Below, piece by piece: positions 10,754 through 39,153 of a stretch of DNA of 64,000 nt (position 1 is its first letter; the number at the start of each line of letters is the position of its first letter). Source of the stretch: a virus; IMG/VR virus record IMGVR_UViG_3300028840_003271, positions 64,001 to 128,000 of that record. The stretch is one strand, 5' to 3'. The notes under the pieces are model-generated. The model was not told the DNA's origin. It saw only the letters and a list, made by a program, of their open reading frames with translations, and made no database searches. The position numbers were made by a program, and so were the translations under genes.

Positions 10754-11257
10754 CTACATAACTTCAGACAAAGGTTCCTTGCTTATTGCAGTGATTTTTT
10801 GCCGGCATCTTCGACAATAATACCTTTTTCCCTCCAAAAATCTTTTCTTTTGAGTTGCTCCCAATGTGCAGCCGTTATGACATGCACATTTTCCACGATA
10901 TCTTTTGACTTCCAATTTTTGACAACTTACATTATGACATCTTTGTGGTAATTTTCCACATTTTCGCATATAATATTGCCATTCAGTTCCATGACTAGGT
11001 GGTTGCCATCTACTTTCCTTAAATTTTTCCATGACTACAATATGACATGCTTCATGCACAACCGTATTTTCCCTTTCCTTTTCGGACATATGTTCCATTA
11101 CATGCGGAGAAAGTTCAATATAATACTTTCCATCTTTTCTATTTGCCCGACCAGCAGTGGTTTTCAATGCACAATTGACTACCATATCACATTTGATATT
11201 CGGGTAGCCACATTTAACAAAGGTTTCATTCATTAAAACACGATATTTGCCGGCCAT
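10754..11257 (-). CDS. SprT-like metalloprotease with Zn ribbon
   Basis: TTAGRA, VVHEACH (HExxH), SHGTEW, C-terminal CAC and CRRC. Confidence 0.9.
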   Translation of the reverse strand: MAGKYRVLMNETFVKCGYPNIKCDMVVNCALKTTAGRANRKDGKYYIELSPHVMEHMSEKERENTVVHEACHIVVMEKFKESRWQPPSHGTEWQYYMRKCGKLPQRCHNVSCQKLEVKRYRGKCACHNGCTLGATQKKRFLEGKRYYCRRCRQKITAISKEPLSEVM

Positions 11258-11562
11258 TTTCTTTTCCTTTATTTTAAGGAGAAAAAAACAGACTACTTAA
11301 TTACAATCAATAATAGCACCACCAATCTTTTTCCGTTAGTTCTAGTGCTAAGATAACCGTGTTTTCCGCACTCATTTTTTCTCTCCTTAAATACTGACTA
11401 TGCCTGACTACCGAATTTTCCACCAAATTAGATTGGGTAATCATTTTCACATTTGGTGGCGAATTGTTTCTTTTTTTGTTTTCTCTTTTTTCCTTCTATA
11501 CTACATTTTACCTATTCAGCTTGCCCCACAAGGGGGGGTTGCATAGGCGAGGTGCCGCAACC

Positions 11563-11591
11563 ATTCTAGCATATCGGCAGACCGAATACAA
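11563..11591 (-). promoter_or_regulatory. sigma70-type promoter TTGTAT-N17-TAGAAT with extended TGn
   Basis: minus: ggggTTGTATtcggtctgccgatatgcTAGAAT; A-rich UP-like tract upstream. Confidence 0.8.
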
Positions 11592-11610
11592 CCCCTAGAA
11601 TGTTTTTCTA

Positions 11611-11626
11611 TGGCATAGCTTTTGCT
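11611..11626 (+). promoter_or_regulatory. sigma54 (-24/-12) motif TGGCATAGCTTTTGCT
   Basis: GG-N10-GC, close to consensus TGGCAC-N5-TTGC. Confidence 0.65.
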
Positions 11627-11720
11627 GGAATACCCCCCGATTTGACTAGACAGACGGCTGACACTATATATAGATAATGCCATAGCATTTGTACATCACT
11701 AATGGGAGGGGGGAGCGAAT

Positions 11721-11893
11721 CCCACACCCCCCAAAGGTACCCCCCTAGGTGGAGAATGCTGTGCCCCACACCCCTCGAAGGCACCCCCCTGGTTGGATAG
11801 GGTTGTTCCCCACACCCCCTAGAAGTGCTTCTCCCCTAGGTGGGGGGTAGGGTATCCCTCGCGTGCGAAGCTGGAGTAGGGTATCCCTCGCGT
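11721..11893. repeat. cassette A: three 44-bp units plus GGGTATCCCTCGCGT x2
   Basis: CCCACACCCC at 11721, 11765, 11809; homologous to 12972-13144. Confidence 0.85.
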
Positions 11894-11901
11894 ATGCCCA
11901 C

Positions 11902-11924
11902 AAAAAAAGCCCCCTTGCGGGGGC
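11902..11924 (-). terminator. intrinsic terminator
   Basis: minus: GCCCCC-GCAA-GGGGGC-TTTTTTT (GNRA loop). Confidence 0.9.
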
Positions 11925-11935
11925 GAGCATGTTTC

Positions 11936-12076
11936 CTATCGCTTTGATAGGGTTTTCATGCGTTGTTGGTGGTGCCATCCTGCCTTGTGTCGGTCTAGAT
12001 TGCCTCCTCTGACGCGAAGGCCACATTGAGGGCATTTCTTGGGGCTTTGTTGGGAAGGGTCAGTTTTCGTTGTCAT
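11936..12076 (-). CDS. 46-aa C2H2-like zinc finger mini-protein (below ORF-track cutoff)
   Basis: GGAG RBS; MTTKTDPSQQSPKKCPQCGLRVRGGNLDRHKAGWHHQQRMKTLSKR*; ends just before terminator. Confidence 0.7.
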   Translation of the reverse strand: MTTKTDPSQQSPKKCPQCGLRVRGGNLDRHKAGWHHQQRMKTLSKR

Positions 12077-12113
12077 AACACAGACTCCGTAAAAGGGGAA
12101 GGGAAGCTACAAG

Positions 12114-12329
12114 CTAGTTGATACAATTGGGCGTACGCAAGGGGTGCCCTTTGTCGAACGTGTAACGATAGGGGTCTGCAAGACCATTGTCGATTTGGTG
12201 TTCTTCAGTCTCATATGGTCCTTGGCGAGGACAATCGAGAACTGGGCGGATATGCCACCCTATCGGGGCAATGTGGCGGATTGCTACATAGCCCACTATC
12301 ATATCTTGCGTGCTACCATAAAGGGACAT
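12114..12329 (-). CDS. hypothetical early protein
   Basis: Start MSLYGS; lies between promoter-proximal gene and terminator. Confidence 0.45.
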   Translation of the reverse strand: MSLYGSTQDMIVGYVAIRHIAPIGWHIRPVLDCPRQGPYETEEHQIDNGLADPYRYTFDKGHPLRTPNCIN

Positions 12330-12414
12330 GTTTGATTCTTGGGTTATAGGGTGCAGAGAAGCTGACCTATTCTCCCCCCTCCGGAGAGGGGGGGTGGTAG
12401 GGTAGCTTGCCGTG

Positions 12415-12735
12415 TCACTCTTCAGTGTCTTCAACAAGAAGGGCAGTAAACGCGGTCTTTTTTCCGCTTCCCTTTGCTCGCCCCCTTGGAAGGGAAGGAA
12501 GGATAATCCCCCTTTCCTTCTTCAGGGCATTACGCAGTTCGACGCGAACCTTTTTCGCGTCATCAAGGGACAGTTGAAATTGTTCGGCGAGCTCTTCATT
12601 GGTGAGGGTCGCTTTGCCCTGGGCATCGGTCGCCTGCAATGCAACTACCATAGGGCGGGTACGACGTGCCTTGGCAATCAGTACTTCCCTCGTGTCGCCC
12701 GAAACCGCAACATAATCCTCGTAACTTGCCATCAT
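12415..12735 (-). CDS. putative HTH-like DNA-binding early protein
   Basis: First gene after promoter 12789-12817; LTNEELAEQFQLSLDDAKKVR; basic PRGRAKG. Confidence 0.65.
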   Translation of the reverse strand: MMASYEDYVAVSGDTREVLIAKARRTRPMVVALQATDAQGKATLTNEELAEQFQLSLDDAKKVRVELRNALKKERGIILPSLPRGRAKGSGKKTAFTALLVEDTEE

Positions 12736-12788
12736 TCACCCTTTCGCAAAACAGAGAATAGAATCGGTTGAAACGCACAACACCTCTG

Positions 12789-12817
12789 ATTCTACACTGT
12801 CGACAATCGGAATACAA
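12789..12817 (-). promoter_or_regulatory. sigma70-type promoter TTGTAT-N17-TAGAAT
   Basis: Same hexamers, spacer length and upstream context as 11563-11591. Confidence 0.8.
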
Positions 12818-12846
12818 CCCCTAAAATGTTTTTTTTTGATTCCGTT

Positions 12847-12862
12847 TGGCACAAAATATGCT
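12847..12862 (+). promoter_or_regulatory. sigma54 (-24/-12) motif TGGCACAAAATATGCT
   Basis: GG-N10-GC with perfect TGGCAC. Confidence 0.65.
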
Positions 12863-12971
12863 ATTGGTGACGGACCATCAAGATAGATCGACTGACTGAC
12901 TGACTGACTGACAGACTAACTACTTCGCGTGGGGGGTAACCAGGTCTCCCCCCTGTCGGCAGATACCGTAT

Positions 12972-13144
12972 TCCACACTCCCCAAAGGAGTATCCCCCTT
13001 GTGGAGAGTGTTGTTCCCCACACCCCCCGAAGGTATCCCCCTAGTTGGATAGGGTTGTTCCCCACATCCCCCAGTGGTGTTTATCCCCCGAGTGGGGGGT
13101 GGAGTTCTCCTCGCGTGCGAGATCCAGCAGGGTATCCCTCGTGT
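12972..13144. repeat. cassette B: three ~44-bp units plus GGGTATCCCTCGTGT
   Basis: Units at 12972, 13017, 13061; homologous to 11721-11893. Confidence 0.85.
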
Positions 13145-13145
13145 G

Positions 13146-13397
13146 CTAGGCTAGGCCAAGGGGCAGGAAAAAGTCCCGATCGGCAAGATATTGTTCCATG
13201 CCATGGTACCATGCTGCCCATGCAATAGGATCGTGGGTGAGGGAGAAGGGGTTGTCGGTTGGATGGTCATATCCCCGATTGTACCCCCTCGCATAATGGG
13301 GGTCATACATGAATCTATGCCAATCCCTCTGATTAGGGGGTATGTCGGCAAAATGCCGATCGAGTATTGCAATGTGGCGAAGGGGTTCGGTTAGCAT
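13146..13397 (-). CDS. hypothetical early protein
   Basis: GGGAG RBS; YARGYNRGY...NPF...AWAAWYHG motif. Confidence 0.65.
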   Translation of the reverse strand: MLTEPLRHIAILDRHFADIPPNQRDWHRFMYDPHYARGYNRGYDHPTDNPFSLTHDPIAWAAWYHGMEQYLADRDFFLPLGLA

Positions 13398-13409
13398 GGA
13401 TGATTCTCC

Positions 13410-13715
13410 CTATTCTGAGGGGGCAAGATAGAATCTTATCAAAGCTTGTCTTTCATCTTCCGAAATGGAGGGAAAGACTCCCTTCATATAAGAAGCTTTC
13501 TGTACTCGCGTAAAATGCGGAAGGGGGGTTCCCTTATCGCTCAGTCCGAAAATACGATATAGTAATCGGGGGAGATCACCTTTGAGATGCACACCTTCCC
13601 CCTCATCGAAGGGGGTTTCGCCTTGTGCCCTTCTGCCGAGAGTGTAGAACTGGGCAAGTTCTTCCACCCTTTCGGGAGTAGCTCGCCGAGGGGCATATGG
13701 TATCGGAAGGAACAT
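13410..13715 (-). CDS. hypothetical early protein
   Basis: AGGAGG RBS, TGATG coupling. Confidence 0.7.
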   Translation of the reverse strand: MFLPIPYAPRRATPERVEELAQFYTLGRRAQGETPFDEGEGVHLKGDLPRLLYRIFGLSDKGTPLPHFTRVQKASYMKGVFPSISEDERQALIRFYLAPSE

Positions 13716-14062
13716 CAGGAATCCTCCTTTTGGGGGGTAACTAGATAGGCGAGCATTTTCGCAAACTCATCCGACTTTTGGGGGGTATTGTTCCCTCTCC
13801 TTTTTCTCCCCTGTTTTGAGGTATACTTATACCTCCCCTTGCAATTGTTGGGGTGTTTGCCTACTGCCGTTTTCGGATAGCGGCGAGCTAGGATACCTTC
13901 CGATTCTGCCTGACTTGATATGGCCTTGTCCCTTGTCTTTCTCGCCTCCACTAGTTCCATTGCCTTTTGTGGAGTTAGTTTCTGTATCTCGGCAGAGGAA
14001 AGGTACCGTTTCATAAGAGGCAGCATCATCTCCACCAAAATGGGGGGTGTGTTCTCAGTCAT
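13715..14062 (-). CDS. hypothetical basic early protein
   Basis: Start MTENTPP chosen; upstream extension looks non-coding. Confidence 0.55.
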   Translation of the reverse strand: MTENTPPILVEMMLPLMKRYLSSAEIQKLTPQKAMELVEARKTRDKAISSQAESEGILARRYPKTAVGKHPNNCKGRYKYTSKQGRKRRGNNTPQKSDEFAKMLAYLVTPQKEDS

Positions 14063-14256
14063 CGTATTACTACCTTTTGGGGTGGAAGGGATTGTACTAG
14101 GCCGGTGGTCGAATCGACCACTATAGCTCGTAATCGCTTGCTGTTTGCCTCCCTTACGTAGGCTAGCAGATAGCCCATGCGGGAGGTTCTCAGTCGGTTG
14201 TTTACTGGCGTGCGTCGAATCTCGACTTGCATTGTTCATCCTCCTGCTAGGGGGAA

Positions 14257-14529
14257 CTAGTCCCCCGCTTGCCGAAGTAGTTCCTTTGGGGACAACCCCC
14301 CCGATTGTAGGGCAATCCACTCCGCCCTACTCTGCAATCCCCCCTGCTGGTTGTCGATTCTCCGCCCGATGGTGGGAGAGCTATCGGTATGCAAAGGGGA
14401 TATCGGGGTATTCTGTACAATCCCGAAAAAGGTTCCTTTCGTGCGGGGAGGTTCCTTGCCTCCGATAGGGAAGCACAGTTTCCCTTTGCGGAATTGCCCC
14501 TTGCGTTGACGGGGTTGAATCGTCACCAT
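14257..14529 (-). CDS. hypothetical early protein
   Basis: GAAGGAAG RBS, overlaps upstream stop. Confidence 0.45.
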   Translation of the reverse strand: MVTIQPRQRKGQFRKGKLCFPIGGKEPPRTKGTFFGIVQNTPISPLHTDSSPTIGRRIDNQQGGLQSRAEWIALQSGGLSPKELLRQAGD

Positions 14530-14810
14530 GGTCTTCCTTCATGGAGTATAAAGGTTGCCATTTCATAGGCTAACTTGGCCTGTAATAGACCGAGGTGTGG
14601 CAACACGGACCGAATAACCTTTATCGTGGCAAGTCTTCTCTCATTGCCGCTACTAAGGTTATATTGGCACAATGCCATGATACTTTTGTATTCCTGTTCT
14701 TGCAATTCAAGGGTGGGGTTCGGCTGGTCCATTTGCCACGATCCGTCTGCCTGCTCCCGATACGTTACTACCACGCCATTGTCGCCATGAATTCGGATTA
14801 CGTGTTGCAT
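14523..14810 (-). CDS. protein with ribosomal bL12 (L7/L12) C-terminal-domain-like motif
   Basis: RLATIKVIRSVLPHLGLLQAKLAYE resembles [30 protein letters not shown] RBS. Confidence 0.65.
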   Translation of the reverse strand: MQHVIRIHGDNGVVVTYREQADGSWQMDQPNPTLELQEQEYKSIMALCQYNLSSGNERRLATIKVIRSVLPHLGLLQAKLAYEMATFILHEGRPW

Positions 14811-14841
14811 CGCCGATCCCCTTATGCGAAAGTACAGTTCC

Positions 14842-14887
14842 GATTCTCACCGGATTGTGAGAATCTACCGAAGTATAGCATTGTCAA
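14842..14887 (-). promoter_or_regulatory. probable extended -10 promoter (TGcTATACT) followed by palindrome GATTCTCAC-N6-GTGAGAATC
   Basis: Directly upstream of first island gene; the adjacent TTGACA is too close to serve as -35. Confidence 0.5.
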
Positions 14888-14981
14888 GCCCACCCCCCAA
14901 AAGATATTCGTCGCAAGTCGGTTCATAGTCAATACTTAGGGCAATATTTTTCTCGAAGTGGACACACCGAAAAATGAGACC

Positions 14982-15044
14982 AGCAAACCGTATGCCAATG
15001 GTTCGGTATGGCATTTGCTGTCGGGTTTTGGTACGAAAGTTGCT
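14982..15044. promoter_or_regulatory. cluster of three sigma54-type motifs (14982-14997 minus, 15004-15019 plus, 15029-15044 plus)
   Basis: TGGCATACGGTTTGCT, CGGTATGGCATTTGCT, TGGTACGAAAGTTGCT; all GG-N10-GC. Confidence 0.65.
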
Positions 15045-15243
15045 GTGAGTCCAGGTGGGGGGGATGCCGGCACCCGTAGGATATAGTAGGATTTGGGGCT
15101 GTGGGGCATAGGTTCGCAGAGAAGGGGGAGAACAAACGTTCATACCCCATATGGGTGGGTGGTATTTTCTGATTTTGGGTTGTGGGGGATATTATACCCC
15201 CCAAAAACGGAAGGCATGTATTCTAAATATAGACCAAACAATA

Positions 15244-16188
15244 TCAAACGGACACCTTTTTGTTTCCGTTTCTTACTAATCTTAATCTATCGTTCATATT
15301 ATCTTTATCACTTCCAAGTTCCAAATGGTAAGGATTACAGCATAATTTATTATCACATTTATGACGAACAACCAATCCGTTAAAAGGTTTATTAGAGAAA
15401 AGAAAATACATTAAACGGTGAGCGGGCCATGTACGTCCTGTTAATTTAATTTGTCCATATCCATCTTTACACGTCTTTCTTGTCCACAATAAACATTCTT
15501 CTTTGTCTCTTATAATAATTGATGCTTTATCTCGACCTTTATATTTTAAGTTTTTCAATAATGGATCAAATTTAAACTCAACTCTTGTTTTATCAAAAAA
15601 AGATAAAAAATATTCAACTTGTCGATACGTTAAATTTAATATTTGATGTTTAATAGTAGTATTATATAACATGGTTGAATCAAGCCCATATAAATATCTT
15701 GCTTCTAATTTCATCGCTTCGTGTTCTGTATTCGTATATTTCAAAACACCATATCCAAAATTATCACGTCCTAACTTATTATAATCTTGTTGTAGGTTTC
15801 TATTTTCGTGTTTGTTTTGATTAAGAAATCTAACATGTGTTTGAAATCTATAACCCAAATTTGAAGTATATCCAATATAAAATTTATTATTAATCAAACA
15901 CTGAATAAAATACAACCCACACAAATTTTCCAAACTTGTATTATTGATAATTTGTTTCTCATTATAGTGTGCTACAGTACCAATTTTAATCAACTTGAAC
16001 TCTCGTGCTTTATTATAAATAGCATATTGTGATTTATTAAAATGTTTTTGTAACTCTTTATTTGACATTTTGTGATACAACTTTTTAAATTCTTGTTCGT
16101 CTTTTGCTGTCCAGTGTGAGCGATATTTTTTATTTGGTCCACAAGAACCTTTTGGTCTACCTACTTTCTTTTTTTTCAACATGTACAT
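15244..16188 (-). CDS. homing-endonuclease-like fusion: HTH + GIY-YIG + HNH
   Basis: WTAKDEQ HTH; GLYFIQ..FYIG..RF..H; GYG..AHR..VRHKCDNKLCCNPYHL..N; AGGAGG RBS. Confidence 0.85.
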   Translation of the reverse strand: MYMLKKKKVGRPKGSCGPNKKYRSHWTAKDEQEFKKLYHKMSNKELQKHFNKSQYAIYNKAREFKLIKIGTVAHYNEKQIINNTSLENLCGLYFIQCLINNKFYIGYTSNLGYRFQTHVRFLNQNKHENRNLQQDYNKLGRDNFGYGVLKYTNTEHEAMKLEARYLYGLDSTMLYNTTIKHQILNLTYRQVEYFLSFFDKTRVEFKFDPLLKNLKYKGRDKASIIIRDKEECLLWTRKTCKDGYGQIKLTGRTWPAHRLMYFLFSNKPFNGLVVRHKCDNKLCCNPYHLELGSDKDNMNDRLRLVRNGNKKVSV

Positions 16189-16399
16189 GTATATTATCCT
16201 CCTGTTTTTCTATACACCAAAAAATCCCCCTATGTCCATGTTTAATAATTCCCAACTTCCTCCTCTGTTTACGTAAAGCTTGCAAACTAATTTTTCGCCC
16301 ACTCAAATTCTCCAATTTCCGACATAACTCCTCATCTTTCATGGTGGGAGCTAACTTTTTAATAAGTGCGTGTTCTGCTGGCGTCCACACTATATTCAC
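16157..16399 (-). CDS. small HTH protein, RpoN-box-like; paralog of 19181..19384
   Basis: AAGGAG RBS, GTG start; TMKDEELCRKL...GRKISLQALRKQRRKLGI. Confidence 0.7.
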   Translation of the reverse strand: MNIVWTPAEHALIKKLAPTMKDEELCRKLENLSGRKISLQALRKQRRKLGIIKHGHRGIFWCIEKQEDNIHVHVEKKESR

Positions 16400-16483
16400 T
16401 TTTTTTCTCCTTAATTTGTTAATTTGTTAATTTGTTAATTTGTTTTTGTGTTTATGTGCTTATGTAGTAGTAATGTGACTAAT

Positions 16484-19180: not shown

Positions 19181-19384
19181 TTACTGACTTACTACCGTAC
19201 AACCTCGCCCACGAGCCTTTTTAATACCTAATTCTCGACGAACAGCACGCACATCAGACACGGTAAATACTGACCCGTTTTTTTCACTTAATGTTTGAGA
19301 CAGCCTTTTATCTGTCATAGTCGAGGCGTTTTCCTGCACATAAGTCTTAACGTCCTCATTCCACACTTTCTTTACTCTTGCCAT
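19181..19384 (-). CDS. small HTH protein, RpoN-box-like
   Basis: GAGGA RBS before MARVKK; TMTDKRLSQTLSEKNGSVFTVSDVRAVRRELGI. Confidence 0.7.
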   Translation of the reverse strand: MARVKKVWNEDVKTYVQENASTMTDKRLSQTLSEKNGSVFTVSDVRAVRRELGIKKARGRGCTVVSQ

Positions 19385-19505
19385 TTTTTTGTCCTCTCTA
19401 AACTTTTTTTGAGCACTTGTGTTTTTTGAATGACAAACTACTTCGTTTATCATATTATATAATACAGTTCGAAACTTTTTTTTCACAAACAAAAAGGAAA
19501 TTTTC

Positions 19506-19694
19506 ATGACTTTTTTGAAATCAACGCTCGAAGTTAAGGCTGTGGGCGGACTTACGGAGCAAATCGGTGGTGAAATTAATTTACCAGATCCACCAAAAGA
19601 GGTTGCTCAGGCAATGTTAATGTCTATCGACGAAATAGACGAAGACGATGAAGAAGAAAACAAAAAAAATGCAAATTCCAAACGGAATGACTGA
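19506..19694 (+). CDS. small acidic hypothetical protein
   Basis: AAGGA RBS; leads the sigma-factor operon. Confidence 0.6.
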   Translation: MTFLKSTLEVKAVGGLTEQIGGEINLPDPPKEVAQAMLMSIDEIDEDDEEENKKNANSKRND

Positions 19695-20253
19695 AAATGA
19701 AGTTGTTGAAATTATTAATAAAATAGCTCGACGACTTTCTACAATTTTTCGATTTGGATATTATAGTGCGGACGATATATTTCAAGAGGCATGGATTATT
19801 GCTATCGAGGGTTTAAACCGATATTCTGTTCAAAAGGGTCCTCTTGAAAACTTTCTTTGGATACATGTTCGTAATCGTTTGTGTAATTTTAAAAGAAATA
19901 AATATGAAAGATTGGAAAAACCTTGTAAAAGATGCATATACGACTGTGAAGAATCACCGTTGTGTGAAATTTATAATAAATGGTTAAAAAGACGAGATAG
20001 TAAAAAAAATTTGGTAGATATGATCGACTTGAATTGCGTAGATGATAAATATGAAAAAAATATGAAAATTGTTAATGAATATGGAGATATTGATCATTTG
20101 TCTGAAATTATTGATAAATTTTTACCTCCACAATATCGTCGTGACTATTTACAGATGATTGGTGGTATATATGTGCCCAAAAAAAGACGAATTGAAATTC
20201 AGAATATAATTCGTGAAATTCTAGAAGAACATGGATATGATATTGATTTTTAA
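19648..20253 (+). CDS. phage RNA polymerase sigma factor (sigma70 region-2 type), probable late sigma
   Basis: DDIFQEAWIIAIEGLNRY...LENFLWIHVRNRL; start may be 19669. Confidence 0.8.
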   Translation: MKKKTKKMQIPNGMTENEVVEIINKIARRLSTIFRFGYYSADDIFQEAWIIAIEGLNRYSVQKGPLENFLWIHVRNRLCNFKRNKYERLEKPCKRCIYDCEESPLCEIYNKWLKRRDSKKNLVDMIDLNCVDDKYEKNMKIVNEYGDIDHLSEIIDKFLPPQYRRDYLQMIGGIYVPKKRRIEIQNIIREILEEHGYDIDF

Positions 20254-36186: not shown

Positions 36187-39153
36187 ATGATAAATAGAAT
36201 AGTTATATTTATTGTTATGTTATTAGTTCCGACAGTTGCTGTTGCTGGTTGGCGAAATTCATCTTGTACTGTATATCATGTTACGAGTTTATCTGGAGAT
36301 GGAACAGGAAGTGGTACATTTCGAGATGCTGTTGCTGCTGATGGAGACGATATTGATACACCAAGAATTGTAGTTTTTGATATTGGTGGAATGATTCGGC
36401 CGACTAGTAGAATTAGTATTACGCGAAACAATTTGTATATCGCAGGTCAGACTGCACCAGGTGGAATTACGATTGCTGGAGCGGAAGTAAGGATACCTGG
36501 TACGTTTCATGCCGATGGAGAGCGGGATGAAGGAGATAATACTTATCACGATATTTGTATTCGTCATGTTCGGTTCTATTGTAATCACCTCGATACATCT
36601 TCTCAGCGGGGTAGTCTCCGCAGTTTTTCAGCAATCAACGCAGACCGGTTGATTCTTGACCATTGTTCGTTTATGGGGTCGTCGGATGAGTCGCCTGGAT
36701 TCTATCTCTGCGACGACGTTACGCTGAGTCATTGTGTCATCTTCGATCCGGCTCTTTGTGGTCAGGGCGGGGGATACCATGACGAGGGCAATCACCACTT
36801 TGGTCCTCTGTTCTCGTATTCCGACTTTGGCCAGTATGACGTACATCATTGCCTGCTCGCCAACGTCTACTACAGGATGCCTAATATCGCGGTGCCTGAT
36901 GGTTTGGGCTGCGAAATGATTAACAACGTGTTCTTCAACTGGGAGGCACTTGGTCCTTGGGTGATGTGTAATCATGCTGAGGCTTATTGCAACTACGAAG
37001 GCAACTCGATGATTGCTGGGGCCAGTAGTGTTGCCGCAGGCAAGAAGAAGTTCATGTTCTCGCCAGACGGATCGTATGATCTTTTACTTTATCGTAATGA
37101 TAATGATTATCATATCGACGGGAGCTGGGAGGATTGGACTGCTACACACAGTGTTGATATGTATGATCCCGATGGTGATAAAAATGAACAGGAATCGCGA
37201 TGGACAAGTCCAACATTATGGCCTATTACAAGATCTGCTAGAGCAACTGCTTATACGAACGTACTAGCAAATGCTGGGGCTTGGCCGAGAGATGCGGCTG
37301 TGCGAAAATTGGTTGCTGATGTAGCTAATCTTCAATCTGGTGGTTCAATGGGATTAAAGTATCCAATTGAACATTTTTCGAGTGATAGTGATGGGCCAAC
37401 TGCTGCTGCCAATGACGATGATCGTGATGGAATGAACGATACTTGGGAAGACGAAAATGGGTACGATAAAACCGATGCAACTGATTTTAAAGAATTTGTT
37501 ACTAGTGGTGAGTATGATGGTTTTATGGCAATCGAGTGGTATCTTGAGACGCTGCACGATGCGAAAGAGGCGGTTGATGGTACGCTGCGTACCCTGACGC
37601 TTTCCAAGACCGGAACCGGGGCCATCTGTCCATCATATGGTCGCATTACCCAGGATGGTCTATTCGCCTGGGGTGGACGCGACATGGGGCAGTGGTATGG
37701 GCAGATTGATCTCGTCACCAACTCTCCCTACAGTTACAACGATGGCTCGATTGTTGTGTTACGGGCACGTCCGACTCGCAAGCCGGGTTACGATGATAGT
37801 GTTGCTGGTACGGTCTTTAGCAAATGGGACTGTGACGGCGAGGACATAGATGAACAGACCGCACCTCACATCGAATTCCCGATTGGAAAAGATCTGACAA
37901 TTGATGCCGTTTTTACCAACGCTACTCAACGAACTATTACTACGACTGTTGATGGGACTGGGACTGTATGGGGTGGTGGTGATTATGATGATGGTGAAGT
38001 GGTAACACTTATTGCTTATAGTACTGGTGGTACACACGACTTTAAACAATGGAACCAAACGGCTGGAGATGCTCATGCAATGGATGGGCATGACGGACCA
38101 ATTCTTCAATTTCATGCAGATGGTGATTATACGTGGGAAGCCGAATTTGAGGCAGGTTCGGCCGATGACGTGTTGATCGACGACTTTGACGACCAAGACC
38201 TAAGCGATACGGAATGGGGTAGTTTGACATGGATTCTTGGAGGTGTGCCTGGTGCATTTGGGGCTTCTTCCGGTTTAGAGCATTATGACTTCGGCGGCGG
38301 TGACTATGGCATTCGATACTATCAGCAGTCAGGCGGGATTGCCAATCTGATCCTGCGAAGGGACACGGCCGAACCTCCGAACGGACTTGGGGTAGACCCA
38401 TACTACGAGATTCCCGATGGCACGGTCGCCTTGGCATTTGACATCCACAACAAAGATGACGGGGCCGATGTGGCTAAGCTCGATCCCCAGTTGTCGCCAT
38501 ATGGTAGAAGTTGTCCGTTTGAATATGCAGACAGATTTTATGTGGCATGGAAAGTCGGCGATAGTAGTTGGGGTTGGGACGACCGCGAGGACAATCGGTT
38601 TTGGCACCACTTCAGCGACAGATGGAGGGTGCCAGAGATTGCAGTAGACGCCAGCCATACTGTGGTGATCCCGCTGATTTTCTTAAATGGGCACACTTAC
38701 GATACCGATCATCAGGTCACAGATCAATCCAAGTTTGGCGTATTCTGGGCGGAGTATTTTCTGCATGCCCGCGTTTGGGATGATGCCTGGGTAGTCATGG
38801 ATGATATTCGGTGGTTGCGGGCTGATACGGCCGCGTTGAGTTGGTCGGACGTGACGCCCGTTGCTCACGCGGGAGCTGACCAGACCACAAAGGACTTTGA
38901 TTCATCCGGCGGTGAGACTATTCTTTTGGATGGCACGAAGTCGATTTGCCCAGATGGCGAGATGATTGCTGAGGCAAACTACGATTGGAGTTGGACGGAC
39001 GAAGGTGGGGAGAAGACAGCGGAAGGACCAACTGCACTGGTGACAATTGAGGAAGATGACGGTGACACGGTAACTGTTACTCTTACAATTACGGATGGAG
39101 ATAACGATACGGATACAGATACCGTAGATATTACAATAGCGGCTCCGCCATAA
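36187..39153 (+). CDS. secreted pectate lyase (PL1-like) with Ig-like repeats and C-terminal PKD-like domain
   Basis: Signal peptide AVA; VTSL..G.GTFRDAV, PRIVVFD.GG.I, IAGQTAPGG, DHCSF..SSDE, RMP, DxDxDGM.D.WE; PVAHAGADQT. Confidence 0.85.
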   Translation: MINRIVIFIVMLLVPTVAVAGWRNSSCTVYHVTSLSGDGTGSGTFRDAVAADGDDIDTPRIVVFDIGGMIRPTSRISITRNNLYIAGQTAPGGITIAGAEVRIPGTFHADGERDEGDNTYHDICIRHVRFYCNHLDTSSQRGSLRSFSAINADRLILDHCSFMGSSDESPGFYLCDDVTLSHCVIFDPALCGQGGGYHDEGNHHFGPLFSYSDFGQYDVHHCLLANVYYRMPNIAVPDGLGCEMINNVFFNWEALGPWVMCNHAEAYCNYEGNSMIAGASSVAAGKKKFMFSPDGSYDLLLYRNDNDYHIDGSWEDWTATHSVDMYDPDGDKNEQESRWTSPTLWPITRSARATAYTNVLANAGAWPRDAAVRKLVADVANLQSGGSMGLKYPIEHFSSDSDGPTAAANDDDRDGMNDTWEDENGYDKTDATDFKEFVTSGEYDGFMAIEWYLETLHDAKEAVDGTLRTLTLSKTGTGAICPSYGRITQDGLFAWGGRDMGQWYGQIDLVTNSPYSYNDGSIVVLRARPTRKPGYDDSVAGTVFSKWDCDGEDIDEQTAPHIEFPIGKDLTIDAVFTNATQRTITTTVDGTGTVWGGGDYDDGEVVTLIAYSTGGTHDFKQWNQTAGDAHAMDGHDGPILQFHADGDYTWEAEFEAGSADDVLIDDFDDQDLSDTEWGSLTWILGGVPGAFGASSGLEHYDFGGGDYGIRYYQQSGGIANLILRRDTAEPPNGLGVDPYYEIPDGTVALAFDIHNKDDGADVAKLDPQLSPYGRSCPFEYADRFYVAWKVGDSSWGWDDREDNRFWHHFSDRWRVPEIAVDASHTVVIPLIFLNGHTYDTDHQVTDQSKFGVFWAEYFLHARVWDDAWVVMDDIRWLRADTAALSWSDVTPVAHAGADQTTKDFDSSGGETILLDGTKSICPDGEMIAEANYDWSWTDEGGEKTAEGPTALVTIEEDDGDTVTVTLTITDGDNDTDTDTVDITIAAPP

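Follow-up and report, generated by a model that had tools for sequence, protein, structure and literature searches.

A duplicated non-coding cassette, with a predicted promoter, a sigma54-like box and a repeat array, in a GC-rich island of an uncultured 170-kb phage

What does a phage use an elaborate intergenic element for, when that element occurs twice and encodes no protein? The question is raised by two cassettes of about 340 bp, here called A and B, in a window of 64,000 nucleotides that comprises bases 64001-128000 of the 170,004-bp virus record IMGVR_UViG_3300028840_003271 of IMG/VR (coordinates below are those of the window unless the genome is named). Read on the sense, that is, minus strand, each cassette consists of a repeat array, a diverged spacer that contains a bipartite box resembling the -24/-12 elements of sigma54 promoters, and a predicted sigma70-type promoter. 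The best reading of the locus is that this AT-rich phage acquired a GC-rich stretch of small orphan genes laterally, in a hypervariable arm, and that the cassettes punctuate this island. More specifically, they might be paralogous intergenic control cassettes, akin to the PeSL cassettes of T4-type phages and to phage morons, in which a leftward sigma70-type promoter with an A-tract would fire into the next gene module whereas the box and the array would form a regulator-binding region. We put forward this specific proposal tentatively, with somewhat less than even confidence.

The duplication itself is far beyond chance. When the segments of the two copies were aligned and compared with shuffled sequences, the promoter blocks were identical in 36 of 45 positions (z = 12.7), and the blocks of three 44-bp and two 29-bp units in 145 of 176 (z = 27); a 23-nt stretch is perfectly identical between the cassettes. 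The spacer between these blocks (108 vs 133 nt) shows similarity at the level of shuffles (z = 0.6), and the 150 bp on either side of the cassettes are unrelated between the copies. The approximately 340 bp are not uniformly conserved: there are two conserved blocks around a decayed spacer. This block-wise conservation, along with the random spacer and the unrelated flanks, points to constraint or portability of the cassette rather than to a recent plain duplication. An earlier note on this DNA, prepared from the letters of the sequence, had described the same architecture as present twice, with motifs kept while spacers diverged. Every feature that it listed was recovered in place, and both boxes are retained in spacers that otherwise have random similarity. 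In similarity searches, nothing else in the window or in the genome was found to resemble the two cassettes.

No other sequences in the genome are as prone to form quadruplexes and i-motifs as those of the array, for which G4Hunter gives scores of up to 2.1; the G-rich strand is the sense strand. A hairpin formed by a C-run and a G-run ends both arrays and recurs after the 105-amino-acid gene that lies between the cassettes. Tandem Repeats Finder delineates the 44-bp repeats at 11721-11843 (2.7 copies) and 12973-13073 (2.3 copies). The second and third 44-bp units each find their best match in the positional counterpart in the other cassette, and the first unit of cassette A is closer to the second unit of cassette B than to the first one (34 vs 32 of 44 positions). 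The first unit of cassette B, for its part, ties with the first of cassette A and is nearer to the second unit of its own cassette. The colinear alignment of the units nevertheless indicates that the triplication of the 44-bp unit preceded the duplication of the cassette. The GGGTATCCCTCG core of the 29-bp units is found at 11850, 11879 and 13130, three occurrences against 0.06 expected. In the spacer, the GACT microsatellite of cassette B has a degenerate counterpart in cassette A, at about 11639-11663.

The cassettes are non-coding. The plus-strand frames that cover them show no coding-type bias in codon positions, and in copy A these frames extend over 32-33 amino acids only. Over copy B, there is a 99-amino-acid plus-strand open reading frame (ORF; 12929-13228), which is not credible because successive 44-bp repeats would be read in different frames and a 1-nt indel shifts the frame between the copies; this agrees with the view of the earlier note that no credible plus-strand ORF follows the boxes. 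Coding sequence as an explanation for the repeats was rejected on account of the 44-bp period, the frame-shifting indel and the non-coding codon-position profile. A CRISPR-like array was likewise rejected, by inspection, given that conservation extends over the entire unit, leaving no room for variable spacers.

In the promoter block, the minus-strand TTGTAT-N17-TAGAAT proposed previously, along with the adjoining T/A-tract, can be read directly in both copies (ATTCTA and ATACAA on the plus strand). Between the copies, the two hexamers are identical in 12 of 12 positions, the 17-nt spacer in 9 of 17, and the upstream, A-tract side in 18 of 21, which is the pattern expected of a promoter that is in use. 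Minus-strand transcription would then start near 11556 in cassette A and near 12782 in cassette B, the latter predicted start being located 47 nt before an ATG (12735) that has a ribosome-binding site, AAGGGTG. Copy A directly follows a strong minus-strand terminator, and therefore, the SprT-like operon downstream of it would need a new promoter.

Both diverged spacers keep the bipartite box TGGCAY-N5-WTGCT, in which the TGGCA and TGCT halves are shared by the two cassettes whereas the N5 and the surroundings differ. Box B lies 10 bp farther from the promoter than box A: the distances between the -35 hexamer and the box, given previously as 20 and 30 bp, measure 19 and 29 nt, which leaves intact the observation that they are one helical turn apart. 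In order to assess the background, as the earlier note had advised, we scanned both strands with TGGCACG-N4-TTGCW, requiring the GG and the GC and counting scores of at least 19 as hits. With GG and GC placed 10 nt apart in TGGCAC-N5-TTGCW, four boxes in the island score 19 of 20.5, and a fifth, weaker one scores 17 (Table 1). In the whole 170-kb genome, there are 5 hits, of which 4 are in the island and 1 in the other 166 kb; none was detected at this threshold in the other GC-rich region of the genome. In 1000 dinucleotide shuffles of the island, the mean number of hits was 0.048, and no shuffle reached 4. Hits occur at 1.08 per kb in the island, whereas 852 kb of DNA from related phages gives 0.012 per kb; the density in the island is 90-180-fold that of the controls, and a pattern scan of 11 related records yielded 0-2 scattered matches each. 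Furthermore, the boxes are confined to the three non-coding stretches of the island. The box is thus commoner than in shuffled or control DNA, contrary to the outcome that the earlier note had named as a refutation, and, given this enrichment and its retention in an otherwise random spacer (a coincidence for which the shuffle rate gives an estimated chance of ~2e-6), it is a real bipartite element that is probably under selection. A search for a late-promoter consensus by k-mer counting revealed nothing like the box.

Four of the five boxes point away from all credible genes, the exception being the one at 14982 (-), which has the 95-amino-acid ORF ~160 nt ahead of it; the plus-strand boxes of the cassettes face the non-coding repeats with their unconserved frames. 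Measured instead from the predicted minus-strand starts, the centres of the two cassette boxes would be near -62 and -72, on one face of the helix, as judged from these two cases. Such distances are typical for upstream activators. The three boxes in the leader of the island are packed in 63 bp, where the plus-strand pair faces the 3' end of a homing-endonuclease gene, and are accompanied by degenerate CCCCACA-type motifs, in the orientation opposite to that in the cassettes.

The proposed mechanism of a control cassette can be described along the sense strand. First comes the G-rich repeat array (2x29 bp + 3x44 bp), which could serve as an auxiliary binding or structure-forming region; it is followed by the fast-evolving spacer with its slippage-prone (AGTC)n tract, in which the conserved box TGGCAY-N5-WTGCT may be where a dimeric factor or, alternatively, sigma54 holoenzyme docks as a regulator, on the same helix face in both copies. 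Then come the A-tract and the sigma70-type TTGTAT-17-TAGAAT, which host RNA polymerase with the main sigma factor would use to transcribe the next module, namely, for copy B, the gene for the 105-amino-acid helix-turn-helix (HTH)-like protein and, for copy A, the SprT-like operon, which lies beyond the island. As follows from the gene order in the island, the cassettes are direct repeats around a unit consisting of a promoter, genes and a terminator, and because of this arrangement, the homology between them could allow the bracketed module to be gained, lost or swapped.

Several observations weigh against this reading. The -35 hexamer TTGTAT matches TTGACA in 3 of 6 positions, and a simple consensus promoter scan did not list the minus-strand TTGTAT-17-TAGAAT at all. 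What it listed instead, in each copy, is an overlapping plus-strand promoter that fits the consensus at least equally well (Table 1); the two would be divergent and mutually exclusive. The positions of the boxes at -62 and -72 depend on the predicted start sites. The promoter and the array are 25 bp farther apart in one copy than in the other, a difference that does not amount to complete helical turns, and the array has no assigned role in the model. Copy B lacks a terminator. Compared with PeSL cassettes, which are a few tens of bases long, the cassettes are much longer, at ~340 bp, and also carry the long 44-bp and 29-bp arrays, the microsatellite and the sigma54-like box. Finally, there are only two cassettes, in one genome, and none in its relatives.

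Table 1. Positions of the cassettes, their parts and associated features in the window
Feature	Position	Strand	Remarks
GC-rich island of orphan genes	11515..15215	-	contains both cassettes; 50.6% GC vs 32%
Cassette A	11563..11893		331 bp; in minus-strand view just downstream of the terminator; would fire leftwards out of the island toward the SprT-like gene
Predicted promoter block A	11563..11610	-	-10 TAGAAT (11568-11563), 17-nt spacer, -35 TTGTAT (11591-11586), A-rich UP-like tract
Alternative sigma70-like promoter, copy A	11574..11601	+	TCGGCA-16-TAGAAT
Box A, sigma54 -24/-12-like	11611..11626	+	TGGCATAGCTTTTGCT; score 19; centre about -62 from predicted minus-strand start
Three 44-bp units, cassette A	11716..11847		C-rich on plus strand, G-rich on sense (minus) strand
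Two 29-bp units, cassette A	11849..11893		with GGGTATCCCTCG core
Predicted intrinsic terminator	11902..11924	-	GCCCCCGCAAGGGGGC then T7; hairpin 11909-11924; ends the module between the cassettes
Module between the cassettes	11936..12735	-	105/106-amino-acid HTH-like (12415-12735), possible 71-amino-acid ORF (12114-12329), 46-amino-acid ORF (11936-12076)
Cassette B	12789..13144		356 bp; starts 2 bp past the stop codon of the 83-amino-acid gene; precedes the 105/106-amino-acid gene
Predicted promoter block B	12789..12838	-	-10 TAGAAT (12794-12789), 17-nt spacer, -35 TTGTAT (12817-12812), A9 tract
Alternative promoter, copy B	12800-12827	+	TCGACA-16-TAAAAT; 10/12 match
Box B	12847..12862	+	TGGCACAAAATATGCT; score 19; centre about -72 from predicted minus-strand start
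(GACT)8 microsatellite, cassette B	12890..12921		Tandem Repeats Finder, period 4 x 8
Three 44-bp units, cassette B	12967..13099		
29-bp units, cassette B	13100-13144		one degenerate, one intact
Leader box of the island	14982-14997	-	score 19
Leader box of the island	15004-15019	+	weaker; score 17
Leader box of the island	15029-15044	+	score 19
Probable entry promoter of the island	15220..15247	-	sigma70-like TTGATA-16-TAGAAT, exactly at the AT-to-GC boundary

The island that contains the cassettes is ~3.7 kb long, sharply bounded and compositionally foreign to the phage, which has 32% GC overall and 144-bp terminal repeats, and it carries 26 of the 38 C6/G6 runs of the genome. In the direction of the genes, the order is the entry promoter, a 400-nt leader, four genes, cassette B, the 105-, (71-) and 46-amino-acid genes, the strong intrinsic terminator, cassette A, an AT-rich leader and the SprT-like gene. 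Six minus-strand ORFs of 95, 114 (or 201), 101, 83, 105/106 and ~71 amino acids show coding-type bias in codon positions (G1 > G2, high A2, low GC2), purine-rich ribosome-binding sites and one start/stop overlap. Searches of the 106/78-, 95- and 101-amino-acid proteins against 5.8 billion and 1.84 billion proteins returned self-matches only. The model of the 106-amino-acid protein has low confidence (pLDDT 53), and its Atlas structural neighbours are HTH domains of the sigma70 region 4, GerE and excisionase types, with TM scores of 0.4-0.5, so that the HTH-like identity is only a lead. The 46-amino-acid ORF encodes C-x2-C-x12-H-x4-H, as in a classical C2H2 zinc finger, with a weak Pfam match (E = 0.009). 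Conceivably, the products of these two genes are candidates for binding the array.

Some further repeats in and near the island are worth recording. The motif CTTTTGGGGGGT / ACCCCCCAAAAG is repeated within the island in both orientations and, in one gene, is translated as a recurring TPQK peptide. An inverted repeat with perfect 9-bp arms (GATTCTCAC-N6-GTGAGAATC, 14842-14865), ~30 nt upstream of the start of the 95-amino-acid gene, could be an operator or a hairpin of the 5' leader. The possibility that the island is a mobile element with terminal repeats was rejected: its ends carry no significant repeats, whether inverted or direct, and no duplicated target flanks it.

All credible genes between 1 and 19.5 kb are on the minus strand. 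To the left, the island borders on the SprT-like gene (10754-11257, minus strand) and, to the right, on the gene for a homing endonuclease with GIY-YIG and HNH domains (15244-16188, minus strand). The leader of the SprT-like gene contains a 16-nt inverted repeat (11273-11391), of which one arm is the ribosome-binding region of a 22-codon leader ORF (ATG 11376, minus strand) and the other lies just before the ribosome-binding site of the SprT-like gene itself, as well as a second, 15-bp hairpin (11414-11465); together with the short ORF, these hairpins look like a leader-peptide or translational-coupling device. On the other side of the island, an 8-bp unit (TAACAAAT) is repeated in tandem over a short stretch (16411-16440) upstream of a plus-strand gene at 16482. 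The genome has one other large compositional outlier, the GC-rich tail-fibre gene (36.3-39.2 kb). This tail-fibre-like gene (36187-39153) encodes 988 amino acids with PKD and InlB B-repeat domains, and its relatives in the phage database are human-faecal contigs only. Its GC content of 45-52%, in the second large GC-rich segment of the genome, suggests that it, too, came from a donor richer in GC.

The cassette was not recovered from any other DNA searched. Three conserved cassette patterns had no match in IMG/VR, two had none in JGI metagenomes, and blastn against GenBank phages found no match to the cassettes; one pattern searched against GTDB genomes produced a single match, inside a Streptomyces ORF, that we judged to be due to chance. 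The whole island had no match in the 11 related phage records, and a synteny search based on the SprT-like gene found no close relatives. The terminase of this phage is only 20-25% identical to its nearest counterparts in Bacillus, Clostridioides and Microcystis phages, and 50-57% identical to those of the IMG/VR relatives in its family. Synteny in the family is shared only from the sigma-factor gene (19648-20253) rightwards, and the contigs of four relatives break 1.7-3.4 kb before this gene, which marks the left arm as hypervariable. The gene itself encodes a sigma70-family sigma factor (Sigma70_r2, 29 bits), with 41-49% identity in the family relatives, and stands at the head of the plus-strand structural arm. 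A chimeric assembly confined to IMG/VR is unlikely because a contig from an independent Logan assembly, which may share the same sample, is 100% identical over 20.3 kb, both island junctions included. The phage is also contained in sequencing run SRR6963591.

Among the alternatives to the control cassette, the likeliest is that sigma54 does act at the boxes, either as promoters or as binding sites. We consider this doubtful, and our estimate for an involvement of sigma54 in any form is equally low. There are two versions of this possibility. Host sigma54 holoenzyme together with a host enhancer-binding ATPase could produce plus-strand non-coding RNAs of ~270-320 nt, which would be C-rich and complementary to the end of the message from the upstream module; or, as modelled in the earlier note, a stable closed complex back-to-back with the sigma70 promoter could gate that promoter. 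Under the same general reading, the box at 14982 (-) would drive the island operon instead. All these mechanisms are read from the motif. In their fit to TGGCAC-N5-TTGCW, the four best boxes equal textbook promoters; their enrichment in the island, their confinement to non-coding stretches, the retention of the -24 and -12 halves amid divergence and the 10-bp offset between the copies are all consistent with such sites, and a terminator-like hairpin on the plus strand (11934-11952) could end the RNA from copy A. Sigma54 holoenzyme is also known to sit inactive on DNA, with many conserved non-canonical sites in E. coli (PMC4591121), and a sigma54-like promoter has been reported in Pseudomonas phage YuA (PMC10914365). 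The latter report weakens the argument of the earlier note, which knew of no characterised lytic phage early switch of this kind, that such an arrangement would be novel.

However, the partners that sigma54 would require are not apparent in the phage. A domain search detected no Sigma54_DBD, and there is no enhancer-binding protein; the only PF00158 match in the phage is a full-length RuvB homologue (genome 49218-50114, outside the window; RuvB_N E = 4e-49), and a phage-encoded activator was accordingly rejected, although the host might supply one. No conserved inverted-repeat enhancer is shared upstream of the two cassette boxes, and, as indicated above, a credible gene lies ahead of only one of the five boxes. 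The putative plus-strand RNA folds no better than shuffles in copy A (z = +0.7), and the signal in copy B is weak (z = -0.9); Rfam had no match for the cassettes, even at E <= 1. Two mini-proteins of 80 and 90 amino acids encoded beside the island (16157-16399 and 19181-19453) are mutual paralogues (33% identity, E = 1e-8) and, by eye, resemble the N-terminal HTH-like region of the GIY-YIG/HNH endonuclease; as candidate "RpoN-box mini-proteins", they were rejected, having no Sigma54_DBD signal and no relatives in the PDB.

The most specific version, that the island of a virulent-type phage is wired with 4-5 sites for host sigma54 holoenzyme and has no activator of its own, and that these sites stand back-to-back with the sigma70 promoters in helical-turn register, face the 3' ends of neighbouring modules and either gate the promoters or fire C-rich antisense or non-coding RNAs, is more unlikely still. 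If it were true, the expression of accessory phage genes would be coupled to the physiological state of the host, through occupancy or through a stress-sensing ATPase. A role of the sigma54 holoenzyme of that kind is little documented, the nearest precedents that we found being the YuA promoter and the many unexplained sigma54 sites of E. coli; if the box is a sigma54 site, the island would be a compact natural test case for the holoenzyme as a phage regulator or a driver of antisense transcription.

It is improbable that the cassettes are replication elements, acting as iteron-like arrays or as R-loop origins. Paired origin elements exist in P4 (ori/crr) and SPP1 (oriL/oriR), and P1 or F, with ori plus inc arrays, are two-cluster iteron systems. 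As in the two-cluster systems of P4 and of P1 or F, there are two three-repeat arrays here, ~1.25 kb apart, that flank a gene for a small DNA-binding-like, possibly HTH protein and have an adjoining promoter. In each cassette, three phased direct repeats and two more are next to an AT-rich or microsatellite tract and the promoter, and the units are the strongest G-clusters of the genome, on the transcribed sense strand. Under the R-loop version, sense transcription through these G-rich units would leave a persistent RNA-DNA hybrid that primes DNA synthesis beside the easily melted tract. Unlike the iteron systems, however, the island has no detectable Rep, initiator, helicase-loader or primase family among its ORFs (Pfam, PHROG), there are no DnaA boxes (TTWTNCACA) in the cassettes, and the 44-bp period is about twice the usual iteron period. 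Moreover, the island is accessory and missing from all relatives, and an essential origin is therefore not expected in it.

Very unlikely, too, is the possibility that the array acts as RNA within a sense polycistronic message, uncoupling the modules as a processing site, a stabiliser or a quadruplex between cistrons, comparable to the RNase III sites that lie between the early genes of T7. Copy B appears to be co-transcribed with the upstream genes because there is no intervening terminator, its minus-strand fold is much more stable than those of shuffles (z = -3.7), and the C-run/G-run hairpins recur in the places mentioned above. The minus-strand fold of copy A, however, is no better than shuffles (z = +0.2), and this copy lies behind a terminator. 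Folding the alignment of the two sequences identified 2-4 double changes, a number without statistical power. In view of the empty Rfam search and the fold statistics that are inconsistent between the copies, a structured RNA was rejected.

We likewise see little likelihood that the similarity is merely what is left, in a state of decay, after the donor genome underwent a segmental duplication or repeated illegitimate recombination, and that it is functionless save for a promoter. There are only two copies, with ~80% identity, in an orphan island without relatives, and the richness of the whole island in G/C runs implies that some of the motif recurrence reflects the composition of the donor. 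Decay of this kind is nevertheless difficult to reconcile with conservation that is block-wise and sharply bounded, with flanks and spacer at the random level, with the perfectly identical 23-nt stretch, or with the bipartite box that was kept in a randomised spacer against the chance estimated above.

How, then, do the cassettes compare with known systems? With sigma54 -24/-12 promoters, including that of YuA and the non-canonical sites of E. coli, they share the GG-N10-GC spacing, the halves TGGCAY and TTGCT, and the clustering of boxes in non-coding DNA; holoenzyme can occupy such sites without transcribing. Unlike those promoters, the boxes come with no activator gene, no recognisable enhancer and, for four of the five, no downstream gene. 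There is also a similarity to phage morons, which consist of a promoter, a gene and a terminator and have a deviant composition: from 12817 to 11902, there are a predicted promoter, two or three small genes and a terminator, and the base composition is foreign to the phage. This module, however, shares its composition with the whole 3.7-kb island around it, and a duplicated upstream array is not a feature of morons.

The closest parallel to the proposed control cassettes is with the PeSL cassettes, which combine a sigma70-like promoter with a stem-loop terminator and mediate the shuffling of modules in the hypervariable regions of T4-type phages (Arbiol et al. 2010, PMC2839356). In both cases, non-coding cassettes are repeated in a variable region of small orphan genes, and a host-type promoter, here a predicted one, adjoins a terminator, in this phage beside copy A. 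By analogy, recombination between the direct repeats that bracket the module could delete, circularise or swap it. Apart from the greater length and the additional parts noted above, the differences are that two copies are found here compared with dozens and that copy B has no terminator. The cassette may thus be an unusually elaborate variant of the portable intergenic control cassettes, represented in one genome, and on this basis, its value at present is that of a precise, cheaply testable hypothesis rather than a result. If the proposal is correct, it would extend the portable cassettes that express and shuffle accessory genes beyond the T4-type coliphages, to an unrelated, uncultured phage family in which the cassette is far more elaborate, with an array, a microsatellite spacer and a phased box.

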